From an uncultured bacterium (GTDB lineage Bacteria > Vulcanimicrobiota > Vulcanimicrobiia > Vulcanimicrobiales > Vulcanimicrobiaceae), in assembly GCA_964483365.1 (NCBI GenBank), contig CAZABL010000006.1:6859-70858 (forward strand): a stretch of DNA of 64,000 bases, in the 5' to 3' direction. The position numbers and the translations under genes are program-made. How positions within the stretch are numbered: position 1 is the stretch's first letter; every line of letters starts with the position of its first letter. The notes beneath the pieces were generated by a model, which was given only the letters and a program-made list of their open reading frames with translations, made no database searches and was not told where the DNA came from. Shown here in pieces: positions 5,300 through 64,000 of this stretch.

Positions 5300-5929
5300 A
5301 TGCATCAGCGGCCTCGACTCGAGAAGCAACGGCTCGATATTCTCGTCGACGGCGTGTACGCGATCGCGCTCACGCTCCTCGTGCTCGACGTGAAGCTGCC
5401 CGACGGACTCGCCGCGGCCGAGGTCCCCCGGCATCTCGTCGCGCTATTGCCGAAGCTCGGCGCCTATGCGATCGCATTTGCGACCGTCGCGCTGATGTGG
5501 CTCTGTCACTACTATGTCGCGACGCTCGTACGGCAGAGCGACTACACGCACATCGTGTTGAACCTGGCCCCGTTGATGCTGGTCGCCCTGGTACCGTTCT
5601 CGGCAGCGACCGTCGGAACGTATCCCGGCTCTGCATGGGCCGCCGCGCTCTTCGCTGCGAACTTCGCGTCGATCACGCTACTCTACGCGCTCAACTGGCA
5701 GCACTGCCGGCGCTACCTCATCGGCCCACGCGTCGACCCGCGCACGGCCCACCACTTGACCCAGCTCATCTGGGCGTTCTTCGCCGTCGAATGTCTGGCG
5801 ACGGTGCTCGCGCTCGCCGTTCCCAGCCTGGGACTCGCACTCGTCGCGCTCTTGGTCCCCCTCGGTTATGCGTTCGCGGGCCTGTGGGAAGGCCGGATGT
5901 TCGAGCCCTGCGCGCCGTCCTCAGGCTGA
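5300..5929 (+). CDS. TMEM175/DUF1211-family membrane protein (putative K+ channel)
   Basis: ATG 5300 sits 5 nt after GGAGG (5290..5294), inside ORF 4832..5929. The RLDILVDGVYAIALTLLVLD motif resembles the RxxxFSDGVFAIAITLLVLE signature of this family. It has about 6 hydrophobic helices. Confidence 0.7.
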   Translation: MHQRPRLEKQRLDILVDGVYAIALTLLVLDVKLPDGLAAAEVPRHLVALLPKLGAYAIAFATVALMWLCHYYVATLVRQSDYTHIVLNLAPLMLVALVPFSAATVGTYPGSAWAAALFAANFASITLLYALNWQHCRRYLIGPRVDPRTAHHLTQLIWAFFAVECLATVLALAVPSLGLALVALLVPLGYAFAGLWEGRMFEPCAPSSG

Positions 5930-58870: not shown

Positions 58871-60505
58871 TCATGGATTTTGCAAGACCCCGACGTCCGG
58901 GACGCCGGTGAGGCCGGGCCCGCACCTGAACGAGCTCGCGCTCGTGGTGCTGCCGCCGATGTACTTCATTTCCATTGGATACGGGCAGAGGTTGCGCGTG
59001 AAGAGCACGTTCTGACCCGTTGCGTCGAGCTTCCGTGCGAACAGGGTCTCCGGCGCGACCCCGCGCTCGACCCAATTGATGACGGGCGTCATCGGATCGA
59101 GCGTGTCAGGACCGACGCCTCCGGCGCAGTGTGTCATCCCGGGCACCATGAAGAGCCGGTACGATGTCTCCAGCCCTGTTCCGAACGTCCGCAGAAGATT
59201 CTCGTAGTTTCCGACGCTGGTAAACGGATTGATCGTCTGGTCCGACCACCCCGTGTAGGTCAGCATCTTTCCGCCGCGCTGCAAAAAGCCTCGCAGCTTC
59301 CCGGCATCCGCGACGTCGGCAACCTGACGTGCGCCCACGACGCGGAATGGATCGGACTCGAAATTGAAGGTCAGAGGGCTGAACACGTTTGCGCTCGCCG
59401 GGTACGGAAAGATGTACCTCATCATGGCTTCCGAGAGCCCGACGTCGCCTGAAAAGATGCTCGCGACGTAATTGGTGCCGAGGGCGGCCGGCGGATAATA
59501 CGGGCGTCCGCCGCTGATGATAGGAGAGATCGTCTTCTCATACGCGGCCAGCTCCGCGGCGGTGACGCAATTAGCGCCATTGGTACCGGCCGGACATATC
59601 GTGAGATCCTTCGCCGGATTGAAGACGCCGATGCAACGCCGGGGGTCGGTGATGAGCCCGTCTTGCACTCCGTCAAGCGCGTCACATTTCGCGTAGACCT
59701 GCGCCGAGACGTACTGCATCTTCGCCACGAGTTGGTCCGTCGTCTCTCCAAGGGGCACGAACGCGCGTTCAATCCACGCTTCCCAGATCGACGTGTCGAT
59801 CGGGTTGATCCACGGCGCACCCGCGACGATGCCGTTGAAATCCTCGGGGAACCGCTGCGCTTCCTCAAAGCCCTCACGGCCACCGTCGGAGCATCCGCTG
59901 AAGTACGTAAAGCGCGGGTCCTGTGAGTAAAAGATCTTGACCAACGCCTTCGCAGCGACGTTGGTGACATGGATCGCACGATAGGCCCAGTCGATGACGA
60001 GATCCGGCCGGTTCACCGCCCACGTCCCGTTGTGACCGTCGTTAGTGCTGTGGCCCGTGTCGGTGTGCGCGAACGCAAAGCCGTTCGCAATGCCGAGATT
60101 CCGCGACGCGACATTGCCCGGAGTGTCGAGAAAGTCGCCGGCCAGGCCGCCGTTGCCGGTGACGTACAGTCGCTGGTTCCACGCGACCGGGAGCGCGACT
60201 TCGAACTTGATGCTCGGTGAAACCACGCCGAGGACGTCGCAGAAGGCCGGCGTGACCGACGTCGCCGGCACGAGCTGAGCCGACGTGATCCTTGTCTGCG
60301 CGTCGAGCGCACGACCAGCGAGCGAGCCGCAAACGAACTGCGAGGTGACCGGCGTCGCTCGGTAATTCACGCCCGACGCGTTGGCGTCCAAGAAGTCCGT
60401 TGCGGCGACAGCCGGACGCGCATGCACCAAACAGAGCGGAAGAGTCAACGCTGTCGCGAGCGCAAGCGAAAGCGCACGCCGAACAGCGCGTGATCGATGT
60501 TGCAT
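58871..60505 (-). CDS. Secreted tannase/feruloyl-esterase-family hydrolase
   Basis: ATG 60505 lies inside ORF 58871..60592. The signal is MQHRSRAVRRALSLALATALTLPLCLVHARPAVA. It carries the family motif GCSDGGREG. Confidence 0.8.
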   Translation of the reverse strand: MQHRSRAVRRALSLALATALTLPLCLVHARPAVAATDFLDANASGVNYRATPVTSQFVCGSLAGRALDAQTRITSAQLVPATSVTPAFCDVLGVVSPSIKFEVALPVAWNQRLYVTGNGGLAGDFLDTPGNVASRNLGIANGFAFAHTDTGHSTNDGHNGTWAVNRPDLVIDWAYRAIHVTNVAAKALVKIFYSQDPRFTYFSGCSDGGREGFEEAQRFPEDFNGIVAGAPWINPIDTSIWEAWIERAFVPLGETTDQLVAKMQYVSAQVYAKCDALDGVQDGLITDPRRCIGVFNPAKDLTICPAGTNGANCVTAAELAAYEKTISPIISGGRPYYPPAALGTNYVASIFSGDVGLSEAMMRYIFPYPASANVFSPLTFNFESDPFRVVGARQVADVADAGKLRGFLQRGGKMLTYTGWSDQTINPFTSVGNYENLLRTFGTGLETSYRLFMVPGMTHCAGGVGPDTLDPMTPVINWVERGVAPETLFARKLDATGQNVLFTRNLCPYPMEMKYIGGSTTSASSFRCGPGLTGVPDVGVLQNP

Positions 60506-60699
60506 ATTACACCGTCCGCACATGGCAACAAACGTGGCGCAAGAAGGCACACACGTGTTAGCGGTATTTGCTACCGATATCGATGTTGGCACCTCCGCAC
60601 GCTTATGTCAATCGCTCGAGCGTTGCGTACGTTTGGTTTGCGCTGGTTCGCTGTGCACTCCAGCGACGCGCTGTACGTCTACTCGGCCGCTAATCGTGT

Positions 60700-61746
60700 T
60701 TACAGCGCTCCCACCGCGACATCGATCGGCTCGTCGACGGAATGGAGGAGTCCGGTTTTTACCAACCCTTGGTCGAAGACAACGACACTGTTCCCACTCG
60801 ACGGGGCACAGCAGGTTGCGACGTAGACGTTGCCGCTGGGATCGACCGCGAGATGTATCGGTGGATTCGTCGGCGGCAGACCGATCGTGCCGGTGTGCGT
60901 TGGCGCGGCGTCGCCGCGTGCAGTAGGCTCGTACACGGTCACCGTACCGTTCACTATGTTCGCGGCATAGATCTTGCCGTTCGCATCGACTGCCACGTTT
61001 GCCCCACACAGCCCCGTGTCTGCACCTTGAATCTCTCCGTCGGGCGCTGCGCTTCCATTTGCGTTCGCGGGGAAGATCACGATCTTATTGGACGGACCAC
61101 AGTCGCCGGCTGCGCCGCCGACATAGAGCTTGCCACCGGCGTCGGCTGCGAGACGTCCGGACAAGGCAATCGGAACGTCGATAGCACGCACCGGTGCGGT
61201 GTTCCCATTCGCGCCCGGCGGCAACACAAGGATTTGCGGAGCGACAGTATGCTTAGCATCAACGATGGAGACGTAGACGTTTCCATTGGGATCGACTGCA
61301 AGACCCTCAACGACGTCGTGTTGTGCGGTCGCGAAACCGCTGATTGTCCGAATCGGCGCGACGTTCCCGTTTGCTCCAGGAGCGAAGACGACGACCGTTG
61401 GATTCGCCGCTCCAGGGAACGCATTATTATTGAGGACATAGAGCTCGCCGTGCTGCCCCATCGCCATCGCCGACGGCACGGAGATCTGCGTGTTGTTGCC
61501 GCTAATCACGCGGATCGGCGCGTCCCGGTCTCTTGCATCTGACTGAAAGACGTTGACGGAGTTGAAGGGCGCACCCATCAACACGTACAGCGCGTATCGC
61601 GACCCGGCCGCGGCTCGTCCCTGTTCGGCCGGCGGTATCGCGCCGGCATTCTGTATTGGAGCGGAACCGCTCGTGCCGCCACCACCGCAGCCGGCAAGAC
61701 CCACGGCCAGCGCGAAGCCAATCAAGAACGAACGAAACGCCCGCAT
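60700..61746 (-). CDS. Lipoprotein built from about six beta-propeller-like repeats
   Basis: ORF 60700..61746. It has the lipobox VGLAGC. A recurring module has the form VF.PGANGN.AP.R.I.G ... AVD.NG..YV. Confidence 0.7.
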   Translation of the reverse strand: MRAFRSFLIGFALAVGLAGCGGGGTSGSAPIQNAGAIPPAEQGRAAAGSRYALYVLMGAPFNSVNVFQSDARDRDAPIRVISGNNTQISVPSAMAMGQHGELYVLNNNAFPGAANPTVVVFAPGANGNVAPIRTISGFATAQHDVVEGLAVDPNGNVYVSIVDAKHTVAPQILVLPPGANGNTAPVRAIDVPIALSGRLAADAGGKLYVGGAAGDCGPSNKIVIFPANANGSAAPDGEIQGADTGLCGANVAVDANGKIYAANIVNGTVTVYEPTARGDAAPTHTGTIGLPPTNPPIHLAVDPSGNVYVATCCAPSSGNSVVVFDQGLVKTGLLHSVDEPIDVAVGAL

Positions 61747-61963
61747 CGCTGTTCTCCCTCCACACGTACTGCCGGTACTTTGCCGGCACCATACTCAGTA
61801 CAGCGGACGGAGTAAGCGAAGGTCAACAGACGACTCCCGCCTATCTTGGAAGGTGAGCAAGCAGAGCGGTTGTTTCTTTAGAGGGCAAAGCTACCCGTTG
61901 GGTGCATTGACCCTCGCCGTCTCACACCATACGTTCTTCTGATCACCGCAGCGGGGAAGCACG

Positions 61964-63733
61964 ATGACGAGCAGCGTTGTTCAGCCGATCGCAACCGACG
62001 AGCTTCGCGGACTCCTTGCGGCCGCAAGAGCGCTTCGTGTGCGTCTTGGGGACGCACGTGACCGGCTCGACGCGTCGGTGATCCGGCCCCTCACGGCGCT
62101 GCTTGGGGACGCCGCGAAGCCCGGCGCCGCTTCTGGGCTCGCGGATGACGACGCCGGCGCGGCGTTGTGGGAGCTCACCCTGCGCGCCACTGCGCTGTGC
62201 GTTGGCTCTCGCCGTCCCGCGGAGCTCCTCGAAGCGACGGCGGCGCTCCAAGATCTGTCGCTTCGCGCGGCATCGTCTGACGACGCGCAAGCGCGCCGAG
62301 CGCAGCTTCGTGGGCTGCTCGAACAACAGGTGCCGTCGATTCGCACCGCGGCGAAGGGTCCGCTGCTCGTCACCAACGTCGACGACGTGCACGACTGGCT
62401 CGGACAATCCCTCGCCGTCGCTCCGCTGGTCGCGCTGTGCCGCTGCGGCGCCTCGGCACACAAGCCGTACTGCGACGGCAGCCACGCCGCCGGATTCGAC
62501 GATGCGAAGGACCCCGGGCGGGTTGCAGATCGGCGCGACACGTACGTCGGTCAACAGGTCACGATCCTCGACAATCGCGGCACGTGTCAACACGCCGGCT
62601 TGTGCACGGACCGCCTGTCCACCGTGTTCCGCGTCAAAGAAGAGCCATTCGTTGCGCCGAGCGGCGGCCGCATGGATGAGATCATCCGCGCGGTGCGCGA
62701 TTGTCCCTCCGGTGCGCTGAGCTATGCGATCGACGGCGTCGAGGCGCGCGCGGATGTCGACCATCATGGCACGCGACCACCCGCGATCGAGATCTCGAAG
62801 GACGGACCGTATCGTGTCACGGGCGGTGTGGCGTTGCTCGACGCGAACGGCGACGAGGCGGTGTTGAACGCCGGCGCTTCGCGTGAGCACTACGCGCTGT
62901 GCCGTTGCGGACACGCGCAGAACAAGCCGTTCTGCACCGGGATGCACTGGTTCGTCGAGTTCCACGATCCGGTCCGTGCACCGAAGGACGCACCGACGAT
63001 CTTCGAATGGGCCGGTGGTCTTCCCGCGCTAACCCGCATGACGCGGCTGTTCTACGAGAAGTTCGTTCCCGCCGACGATCTGCTCGCGCCGCTCTTTGCG
63101 GAGATGTCAGCCGATCACCCGCAGCGCGTCGCGGCGTGGCTCGGTGAGGTCTTTGGTGGACCACCCGCTTACAGCGAAGAGTACGGCGGCTATCCGCGGA
63201 TGCTTTCGCAGCACGTTGGGAAGTGCCTCACCGAAGAGATGCGGGCACGCTGGGTGTCGCTGCTGCTGCAGTCCGCGCGCGAGGCCGGTCTGCCGAACGA
63301 CGCCGAGTTCCGGTCCGCGTTTGGGGCCTACATCGAATGGGGCTCGCGGCTGGCGGTCGAGAACTCGCAGACCGAGTCCCGTCCTCCGCTGCACATGCCG
63401 ATGCCGCACTGGGATTGGAACACCGCGGCAGGCCCGCCGGGAAGCCGCGTCTCGGCCCTCGCGCCGACGACACAGCCGGAGGAAACGATACCGCCTGCGC
63501 CCGCTCCCGGCGAGCGCGTGGAGTTCGGAAAGCACATCAAACCACTCTTCCGAGCACGCGATCGCAAGTCGATGCAGTTCGCGTTCGATCTCTGGTCATA
63601 CGCCGACGTCAACACGCACGCCGACGCGATCCTCGAGCGCGTCCGCGACGGGACGATGCCATGTGACGGCGCATGGCCCCAGGAACGCGTCGACACCTTC
63701 GCACGCTGGATCGCCGCCGGCAAACCGGAGTAG
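61964..63733 (+). CDS. Multi-cofactor fusion protein: helical N-domain, CDGSH, divergent 4Fe-4S, CDGSH-variant, group II truncated haemoglobin, unknown C-terminal domain
   Basis: ORF 61964..63733 (589 aa). CRCGASAHKPYCDGSH lies at aa 159-174. GTCQHAGLC...CPSGAL lies at aa 206-252. CRCGHAQNKPFCTGMH lies at aa 313-328. The globin-like region is aa ~343-465 (LFYEKFV, GGPPAYSEEYGGYPRMLSQH, ARWV). The C-terminal part contains IKPLFRARDRKSMQFAFDLWSYADV...DGTMPCDGAWP. Confidence 0.85.
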   Translation: MTSSVVQPIATDELRGLLAAARALRVRLGDARDRLDASVIRPLTALLGDAAKPGAASGLADDDAGAALWELTLRATALCVGSRRPAELLEATAALQDLSLRAASSDDAQARRAQLRGLLEQQVPSIRTAAKGPLLVTNVDDVHDWLGQSLAVAPLVALCRCGASAHKPYCDGSHAAGFDDAKDPGRVADRRDTYVGQQVTILDNRGTCQHAGLCTDRLSTVFRVKEEPFVAPSGGRMDEIIRAVRDCPSGALSYAIDGVEARADVDHHGTRPPAIEISKDGPYRVTGGVALLDANGDEAVLNAGASREHYALCRCGHAQNKPFCTGMHWFVEFHDPVRAPKDAPTIFEWAGGLPALTRMTRLFYEKFVPADDLLAPLFAEMSADHPQRVAAWLGEVFGGPPAYSEEYGGYPRMLSQHVGKCLTEEMRARWVSLLLQSAREAGLPNDAEFRSAFGAYIEWGSRLAVENSQTESRPPLHMPMPHWDWNTAAGPPGSRVSALAPTTQPEETIPPAPAPGERVEFGKHIKPLFRARDRKSMQFAFDLWSYADVNTHADAILERVRDGTMPCDGAWPQERVDTFARWIAAGKPE

Positions 63734-63764: not shown

Positions 63765-64000
63765 CTACGCGGCGGCGTACAATCGGAACTGGACGTAGAG
63801 CGCGATGAGCGCGAGGAGCCACGCGCTGCCCAGCAACAGGCCCCCGCAGATGTCGCTGAGGAAATGTGCGCCCAGCGCGATCCGCGACCACGGGATCGCC
63901 ACGACACACAAGCCCAGCAATGCCGCGATCACGGCTTGCACGGGACGCGGGAAGGGCCCGAACAGCACCAGCAACGCGAACCCGCCGTAGAAGACGACCG
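63765..64000 (-). CDS. PAP2-family phosphatase (5' part lies beyond the window edge)
   Basis: The frame of ORF 63765..63974 stays open upstream to position 64000 (..VVFYGGFALLVLFGP..). The C-terminal PAP2 motif is SRIALGAHFLSD. Confidence 0.65.
   Translation of the reverse strand, partial: VVFYGGFALLVLFGPFPRPVQAVIAALLGLCVVAIPWSRIALGAHFLSDICGGLLLGSAWLLALIALYVQFRLYAAA

Follow-up and report, generated by a model that had tools for sequence, protein, structure and literature searches.

A predicted iron–sulfur core of CDGSH and Fer4_19 domains joined to a group II-like truncated globin in a protein family of soil bacteria

What might a bacterium do with three iron–sulfur (Fe–S) sites and a haem site carried by a single polypeptide chain? 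The question is raised by a gene in a 64,000-nucleotide (nt) stretch of DNA (the window in what follows) from an uncultured bacterium of the Vulcanimicrobiaceae (assembly GCA_964483365.1, contig CAZABL010000006.1, positions 6,859 to 70,858 of the forward strand). The open reading frame (ORF) at 61964..63733 on the plus strand encodes 589 amino acids (aa) followed by a stop codon, and its product, i.e. the fusion protein, carries in one chain a CDGSH domain, a Fer4_19 domain, a second CDGSH domain, a truncated globin and a C-terminal module. A preliminary description, drawn from the DNA letters, had proposed most of these parts. Here we document the domains, the conservation of their ligands, the distribution of the family and its linkage to regulators, and weigh what the protein may do. 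The reading that we tentatively prefer, at somewhat less than an even chance, is that of a cytoplasmic multi-cofactor oxidoreductase, in which a relay of Fe–S clusters would reduce a haem, and the haem would in turn react with O2, peroxide or nitric oxide (NO).

Domain organization of the fusion protein

The ORF map and the translation confirm that the 589-aa ORF is real and encodes a single polypeptide. Pfam returned three families, all above the gathering cut-offs, i.e. zf-CDGSH in two stretches (E 1.1e-29 for the whole protein), Fer4_19 at residues 194-255 (E 8.2e-18; 64.6 bits vs a cut-off of 24) and Bac_globin at residues 345-442 (E 9e-10); NCBIfam has no model for the window protein. Matches of this strength are far from what chance would produce. 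A structure was modelled with AlphaFold2 on an alignment of 25 sequences (mean predicted local distance difference test, pLDDT, 68). Confidence is high in the helices at the N-terminus (residues 11-118), in the beta strands of the two CDGSH domains, in the globin (residues 346-467) and in the C-terminal domain; it is low in the loops that would bind cofactors, which is to be expected since the model contains none. Pfam, the PDB sequence searches and fold comparison uphold the domain assignments of the preliminary description, and the protein is divided as follows.

61994..62317, plus strand: N-terminal helical domain (N-domain) of five helices, residues 11-118 (AlphaFold2, pLDDT 83-94)
62333..62506, plus strand: first CDGSH domain, residues about 124-181 (Pfam zf-CDGSH; beta strands in AlphaFold2)
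62543..62728, plus strand: Fer4_19 (DUF1271) ferredoxin-like domain, residues 194-255 (Pfam, 8.2e-18)
62801..62950, plus strand: second CDGSH domain, residues 280-329 (best Pfam zf-CDGSH stretch)
62990..63364, plus strand: group II-like truncated (2-on-2) globin, residues 343-467 (Pfam Bac_globin, PDB, Foldseek)
63365..63460, plus strand: conserved post-globin segment, residues 468-499, PPxHMPMPHWDWxTAAGPPGSRxSAL (alignment)
63461..63511, plus strand: variable Pro-rich linker, residues 500-516 (alignment)
63512..63730, plus strand: C-terminal helical module (C-module) of about 73 aa, residues 517-589 (AlphaFold2, pLDDT 86, five short helices)

The iron–sulfur core

Conservation was counted over 82 sequences from several phyla, obtained by scanning one genome per species. 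Both CDGSH motifs lie exactly where they had been reported, at nt 62438-62485 and, in a variant form (C[TS]GMH), at nt 62900-62947, and both are supported by Pfam zf-CDGSH. They have the ligand spacing C-x-C-x8-C-x3-H in common, the presumed 2Fe-2S ligands being C159, C161, C170 and H174 in the first domain and C313, C315, C324 and H328 in the second, for which the best PDB sequence match was 3tbm (residues 275-334 of the fusion protein). The six Cys and H328 are invariant, while H174 is His in 80 of the 82 sequences and Cys in the other two.

The Cys cluster lying between the two motifs had been likened to a divergent 4Fe-4S site. It does belong to a Fer4_19 domain, but not to a classical 4Fe-4S one: where a mono-cluster [4Fe-4S] ferredoxin has four Cys (CxxCxxC...CP), only three are found here (C208, C214 and C247, the last followed by P248), together with His210, and all four of these residues are invariant, as is P248. 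Alignment by eye to the Thermotoga ferredoxin suggests that position 211 is where CxxCxxC has its second Cys; the window protein has Ala there, as in 4 of the 82 sequences, and the remaining 78 have Ser. A cluster at this site may be of the 3Fe-4S type, or of the 4Fe-4S type with His as one of its ligands.

Two CDGSH domains flanking a DUF1271/Fer4_19 domain in one chain have been described as a unit, i.e. as a type 7 CDGSH iron–sulfur domain protein (CISD) of the subtype CDC, for CDGSH, DUF1271 and CDGSH (Lin et al. 2011, PMC3174974). This is the arrangement found here, and the Fe–S core of the fusion protein is, judged by its motifs, a type 7 CISD module of subtype CDC with predicted [2Fe-2S] binding.

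A truncated globin with a distal histidine

The truncated globin is borne out by the Pfam Bac_globin match, by PDB sequence matches and by the predicted fold. In the PDB sequence search, the closest solved relatives were group II proteins (2bmm, 6e-11; 5d1v; 1ux8, 1e-9; HMMER alignments); group II chains matched with E values from 6e-11 to 1e-3, compared with 9e-5 for the best group I chain, and no group III chain was among the matches listed. The AlphaFold2 globin domain (pLDDT 76-91) gave target-normalised Foldseek template modelling (TM) scores of 0.80-0.84 to 5d1v, 2bmm and 1ux8. The key residues are Tyr364 (B10), Phe378 (CD1), His385 (E7), Arg388 (E10), Val389 (E11), His417 (F8) and Trp430 (G8), and all of them, Phe378 and Val389 included, are invariant, as are the Gly-Gly motifs GG351-352 and GG398-399, which align to those of the solved group II proteins. 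The Tyr of the FY motif, the His of RMLSQH and the Trp of ARWV, singled out in the preliminary description, indeed align with B10, F8 and G8 of these structures. With its 2-on-2 fold, the F8, B10 and G8 residues, the Gly-Gly motifs and a sequence closer to group II, the globin is a group II-like truncated haemoglobin, as far as sequence and model can tell, and is predicted to bind haem b.

His385 and Val389 were placed at E7 and E11 through an ungapped stretch that runs from CD1 to the EF Gly-Gly motif; the helix-position labels presumably hold, following the Bacillus subtilis numbering, which is consistent with the printed alignment. In the aligned solved globins E7 is Thr, Ala or Gly, whereas the fusion family has an invariant His (motif D-H-P), and this His at E7 is, on the alignment, a feature that sets the fusion globin apart.

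Neither Pfam nor NCBIfam detected the flavin adenine dinucleotide (FAD)/NAD(P)H domain of a flavohaemoglobin or NO dioxygenase, and the globin itself is 2-on-2; likewise, a Pfam search of residues 1-150 and 468-589 with a threshold as lax as E<=10 showed no transmitter domain of the kind that defines globin-coupled sensors. Behind the globin, the part previously taken as a Pro-rich linker turned out to be of two kinds. Residues from about 500 to 516 are variable and Pro-rich, as had been said, but residues 468-499 are strongly conserved (P474, M478, P481, W483 and W485 are invariant; AlphaFold2 confidence is low) and are no mere linker.

Distribution of the family

An assembly chimera, which the preliminary description had named as a possible artefact, is ruled out: at least four sequencing runs yielded contigs, 9 in total, that encode the identical protein among the same neighbours, and there are hundreds of colinear homologues. 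Nor is the fusion rare, as had been wondered; it is common in soil bacteria, with 2435 matches to the window protein among 5.8 billion protein clusters and colinear relatives in 541 genomes of the one-genome-per-species scan. The best 120 of the 2435 cluster matches are about 530-650 aa long, show 63-100% identity over 88-100% of the query and all contain the three Pfam families; they are labelled only ‘CDGSH iron-sulfur domain-containing protein’ or ‘CDGSH-type Zn-finger protein/truncated hemoglobin YjbI/ferredoxin’.

Among the best 80 of the 541 genomes are Solirubrobacterales, Acidimicrobiales, Pseudonocardiaceae and Streptosporangiaceae, with cultured Kribbella and Actinacidiphila, Eremiobacterota (the top match, at 74%, being in a ‘Vulcanimicrobiota’ metagenome-assembled genome, MAG), and also Chloroflexota, Dormiibacterota, Longimicrobiales and Bacteroidota (Taibaiella koreensis, Segetibacter, Ginsengibacter). 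A 71%-identical homologue (locus L011, contig CAWBUE010000008.1) lies in a MAG labelled ‘uncultured Gammaproteobacteria’, which is odd against the spread over Actinomycetota and Eremiobacterota and may reflect mis-binning, mis-labelling or horizontal transfer.

The N-terminal domain and the long ferritin-like relatives

The N-domain had been described as helical over about 150 aa. In the AlphaFold2 model it is indeed helical, at residues 11-118, but the stretch from 124 to 158 forms beta strands and already belongs to the first CDGSH domain. It had no Pfam match even at E<=10, and the alignment shows no conserved Cys, His or Met within it; a signal-peptide-like N-terminus was not seen in the window protein. 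A cytochrome b562-like haem binder, as suggested by the JGI label on protein P0117, was considered for this domain and rejected, since neither a conserved His or Met nor a Pfam match was found.

Relatives of the N-domain were found by BLASTP in P0206 (6e-18) and P0166 (9e-11), and in such longer proteins the homologous stretch joins a PF12902 ferritin-like domain to the CDC module. The long forms, of 900-1250 aa and with an N-terminal PF12902 domain carrying ExxH motifs, are present in 5 of the 85 non-redundant loci that we compared (L038, L043, L065, L077 and L089). In the long proteins P0155, P0166 and P0206, the N-domain, the CDC module, the globin, the conserved extension and the C-module are homologous to and colinear with those of the window protein; they differ from it by 300-650 additional aa at the N-terminus, including the ferritin-like domain. 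The window protein is the short form of the family. That the long forms exchange an intact ferritin-like site for a degenerate globin was considered and discarded, since L038 and L077 keep both.

The C-terminal module

Within the fusion family the invariant residues of the C-module include H524, D533, M537, M565, P566, C567 and W571. No Pfam match was obtained for the window copy (E<=10), nor for a single one of 17 diverse members. When residues 504-589 were used to search 1.84 billion representative proteins, the module was found in 1268 of them. It occurs (e.g. in P0121, P0122, P0210, P0265 and P0271-P0388) in several settings: alone, in thousands of copies of about 79 aa, all ‘hypothetical’ and without a Pfam entry; in two or five tandem copies, with an N-terminal signal-like sequence in one such protein; as the N-terminal part of Haem_oxygenas_2 proteins (‘iron-containing redox enzyme’), including the eukaryote-like P0265 of 1471 aa; and at the C-terminus of the long ferritin-like forms. 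A profile of the 17 diverse copies matched residues 659-743 of Aspergillus AsqI (PDB 5YY2) with an E value of 2.5e-10; a Foldseek search of the PDB with the confident model of the module gave no match (best E 3.9) and did not recover 5yy2. We conclude that the C-module is a shuffled accessory module of O2-related metalloenzymes.

A haem-less cytochrome c or PSCyt-like fold, considered on account of the pattern IxPLF...MP...W, is not supported, the Foldseek and Pfam searches being negative. A role of Cys567 (motif DGTMPCDGAWP) as a metal or cluster ligand is weakened by its replacement in other copies of the module, which read MPPP, MPKD or MPPD where the fusion family has an invariant Cys.

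The neighbours of free-standing copies are varied, and one copy occurs in an identical context in two samples. At L092 (5001-6609) a free C-module lies 68 nt upstream of, and on the same strand as, a gene for a 433-aa PF12902 ferritin-like protein, an arrangement that echoes the long fusions. Two seemingly ‘free’ modules form the end of a fusion gene copy that is split or frameshifted: on the metagenome contigs of L095 (2377-4216) and L096 (2469-4243) the fusion gene appears to be spread over two or three adjacent ORFs, with the C-module as a gene of its own, which may result from frameshift errors or from genuine gene fission.

Regulators next to the fusion gene in related loci

Neighbouring genes were compared by clustering the six-frame ORFs of the 85 loci. 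An orthologous MarR adjoins the fusion gene in 34 of them (e.g. L007, L008, L013, L014 and L017), directly upstream and divergent in 33 cases; an orthologous TetR (TetR_C_11) is adjacent in 14 loci, and a TMEM175/DUF1211 membrane protein in 12, mostly just downstream on the same strand. The closest solved relatives of the MarR are the urate-responsive MftR (8ylf, 1.9e-37) and PecS (8ylh, 6.7e-37). The residues W24, D68, R75 and H142 of PecS are absolutely conserved for urate binding (PMC11602129), and they are present in all 34 MarRs, except for an alignment gap at H142 in one. Judged by these residues, the fusion gene may be urate- or xanthine-inducible in organisms with the adjacent MarR.

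Apart from MarR, TetR and the TMEM175-like protein, the 85 loci contain no conserved operon partner, but only generic families at variable distance. Several neighbour ‘clusters’ were spurious antisense ORFs of this GC-rich DNA. In the window, a weak TMEM175/DUF1211 homologue (tblastn 3e-9) was seen at 5318-5617, 56 kb from the fusion gene.

Proposed function and alternatives

Which cofactors the fusion protein holds, which way electrons flow through it and what it turns over are inferred as follows. An external low-potential donor would reduce the Fe–S chain, the Fe–S clusters would hand single electrons to the haem b iron, and the haem pocket (Tyr-B10, His-E7, Trp-G8) would bind and turn over O2, H2O2 or NO, in chemistry of the peroxidase, NO-dioxygenase or oxidase type; the fusion protein would do with Fe–S clusters what flavohaemoglobin does with FAD. 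The N-domain and the C-module would be accessory parts, probably for scaffolding or partner binding, shared with the longer ferritin-like fusions. In many relatives expression is probably under the adjacent MarR of UrtR type (i.e. urate/xanthine-responsive) or TetR repressor, a linkage that points to a stress- or metabolite-induced role. The preliminary description had suggested a gas or redox sensor, or an electron-relay enzyme; of the two we favour an electron-relaying oxidoreductase because the ligands are invariant or nearly so at all four cofactor sites; in addition, the CDC and globin block standing behind an ExxH ferritin-like domain in the long relatives fits service to O2- or peroxide-reactive metal centres.

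Several points weigh against this proposal. The binding of cofactors is predicted from motifs, and the Fe–S parts of the AlphaFold2 model have pLDDT values of 25-50, too low for distances between cofactors to be read from it. Eukaryotic CDGSH proteins also act as cluster donors and are not pure electron carriers. No gene or pathway for an electron donor is linked to the fusion gene in the 85 loci, and the 64-kb window has no MarR or TetR homologue, so that the UrtR linkage does not extend to this locus. Finally, the proximal-His segment of the globin is lost in the long relatives P0155, P0166 and P0130, so that some members of the wider family can do without the haem.

The ligand type of the regulators leaves room for a different, though in our judgement unlikely, role, i.e. 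that of a small-molecule oxygenase or oxidase, in which an Fe–S-fed haem, as in P450–ferredoxin fusions, would oxidise an organic (e.g. aromatic or purine-derived) metabolite while the C-module helps to bind the substrate or a partner. UrtR-type MarR and TetR regulators, as found adjacent to the gene, typically sense small organic ligands, the C-module recurs in enzymes of secondary or oxidative metabolism (AsqI, 5yy2; Haem_oxygenas_2; beside the PF12902 gene), and the longer relatives have their PF12902 ferritin-like domain. However, no conserved biosynthetic or catabolic cluster surrounds the fusion gene, the proximal ligand is a His and not a Cys, and the pockets of truncated globins are small. 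If, on the other hand, ligation of O2, NO or CO, or oxidation of a cluster, shifted the conformation and the N-domain or C-module signalled this to a partner, the protein would be a gas or redox sensor. Both haem and labile clusters of the 3Cys-1His kind are classic cofactors for sensing, the invariant His-E7 could allow a hexacoordination that ligands displace, and the C-module is free-standing and shuffled, as adaptor domains are. We nevertheless hold a sensor to be decidedly unlikely: Pfam and NCBIfam reveal no kinase, helix-turn-helix, GGDEF, methyl-accepting chemotaxis protein or other signalling-output domain (nor any reductase, flavin or NAD(P)H domain), and it is this absence of a recognisable output that weakens the idea; besides, the 85 loci have no conserved partner gene, three successive Fe–S clusters exceed what a sensor needs, and the adjacent regulators have a ligand site of their own.

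The same Fe–S domains could also serve the handling of Fe–S clusters, or of iron and haem, with the CDGSH clusters being donated or repaired as in mitoNEET-type CISDs and the haem gating this according to O2 or NO status. The clusters of eukaryotic NEET proteins are transferable (PMC5859297), and in the long relatives the module is joined to ferritin-like domains; against this, the type 7 CISDs of prokaryotes have a ferredoxin-like domain in the same chain, suggesting electron transfer (PMC3174974), no Fe–S assembly genes lie near the fusion gene, and the strictly conserved distal pocket of the globin would be left unexplained. We hold a handling role to be very unlikely.

Returning to the oxidoreductase, it is tempting to speculate further, on a combination of claims that we consider rather unlikely to hold jointly. 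The family would then be a new class of self-wired haemoglobin enzymes, in which a wire of 2Fe-2S, 3/4Fe-4S and 2Fe-2S clusters leads to a truncated-globin haem with a distal His, acting as a urate-inducible reductase of peroxide, NO or O2 in soil Actinomycetota and Eremiobacterota. By the logic of a ‘Rosetta-stone’ fusion, CDGSH/Fer4_19 proteins would turn out to be the physiological reductases that have long been sought for free-standing group II truncated haemoglobins, and the 73-aa C-module would be a new partner-binding domain of several O2-dependent metalloenzymes.

The gene and its flanks in the window

The fusion gene stands alone in the window. No other start codon separates its ATG at 61964 from the nearest in-frame stop upstream, which leaves no room for an extension of the window protein at its N-terminus, and a Shine-Dalgarno-like element (GGGGAAG) immediately precedes this ATG. 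The flanking features are as follows.

60700..61746, minus strand: lipoprotein of 348 aa (LAGC lipobox) with NHL/SBBP beta-propeller repeats, the divergent upstream neighbour
61747..61963, no strand: divergent intergenic region of 217 nt between the minus-strand lipoprotein gene and the fusion gene
63765..64000, minus strand: 3' portion of a gene for a PAP2 phosphatase that runs past the end of the window, the convergent downstream neighbour

The 217 nt upstream had been viewed as a leader, a regulatory role that our results do not support. The region had no Rfam match at E<=1, no sigma-70-like promoter or promoter-like hexamers were found in it, and it shows no similarity to the upstream DNA of related loci outside the same organism. 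A riboswitch or conserved leader was rejected on these negative results, and the region is a divergent intergenic region. The lipoprotein gene is not kept beside homologues of the fusion gene, as judged from the neighbour clustering. Downstream, the convergent orientation of the PAP2 gene holds in the ORF map and at locus L001, where the complete gene encodes 206 aa and is followed by a gene of the DAGK family; 31 nt separate the stop codons of the fusion gene and the PAP2 gene. Two genes upstream of the fusion gene, at 58871-60592 on the minus strand, lies an ORF of 573 aa, the counterpart of which in L001 has 544 aa and matches Pfam Tannase.

Comparison with known systems

Several elements of the fusion protein are known already, i.e. 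the type 7 CISD of subtype CDC, the group II-like truncated globin and the principle of fusing a globin to a redox partner. The novelty lies in how they are combined, and further in the invariant E7 His, in the extension conserved behind the globin, in the C-module for which no Pfam model exists and in the linkage to UrtR. Our literature search found no publication joining CDGSH or Fer4_19 with a truncated haemoglobin or globin.

The Fe–S core follows the type 7 CISD subtype CDC in its order of CDGSH, DUF1271/Fer4_19 and CDGSH domains and in its 3Cys-1His spacing, and 3tbm is its best match among CDGSH structures; unlike the unit described before (PMC3174974), it is set between a helical N-domain and a truncated globin followed by the C-module. 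A globin is not mentioned in either of two surveys of CDGSH proteins (PMC3174974, PMC5859297).

With the group II truncated haemoglobins of Thermobifida fusca (2BMM), B. subtilis (YjbI, 1UX8) and Mycobacterium tuberculosis (HbO, 1NGK), the globin shares the 2-on-2 fold, the Gly-Gly motifs, Tyr-B10, His-F8 and Trp-G8, and its Phe-CD1 is as in YjbI. It differs from them by the invariant His-E7, by Val-E11, by being fused instead of free-standing and by the conserved 30-residue extension.

The nearest parallels in design are enzymes that tie a globin to its own electron-transfer partner. Truncated globins fused to redox partners are known as NO-metabolising enzymes, including the NR2-2/2HbN nitrate reductase fusion, and in both Hmp and NR2-2/2HbN the globin is covalently joined to the partner that sustains its turnover (PMC3820574), as it would be here. 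In contrast to these enzymes, the fusion protein has no FAD/NAD(P)H or molybdenum domain, its partner being three predicted Fe–S clusters, and therefore an external reductant would still be needed. The globin of Hmp is moreover 3-on-3, whereas that of the fusion protein is 2-on-2. A chimera of a group II truncated globin with an antibiotic monooxygenase (ABM) reportedly exists in Streptomyces, where the partner is cofactor-less in place of the Fe–S domains found here. As for the C-module, AsqI of Aspergillus nidulans (5YY2/5YY3), a haemocyanin-like cyclopenase, resembles it in its C-terminal region, while the catalytic part is unrelated; the AsqI paper does not describe the matching region (residues 659-743), and the C-module is a common domain without a Pfam model.

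Neither the physiological role of group II truncated haemoglobins nor the identity of their reductase is settled, and no function has been assigned to the CDGSH proteins of prokaryotes, above all those of type 7; the fusion bears on both. Cultured carriers, e.g. Actinacidiphila yanglinensis, Actinacidiphila paucisporea, Kribbella sp. and Taibaiella koreensis, make genetics and protein work feasible, and the linkage to a urate-responsive regulator offers a candidate inducer. For both questions, this strongly conserved natural fusion provides the testable hypothesis that clusters of the CDGSH and ferredoxin types reduce the haem.

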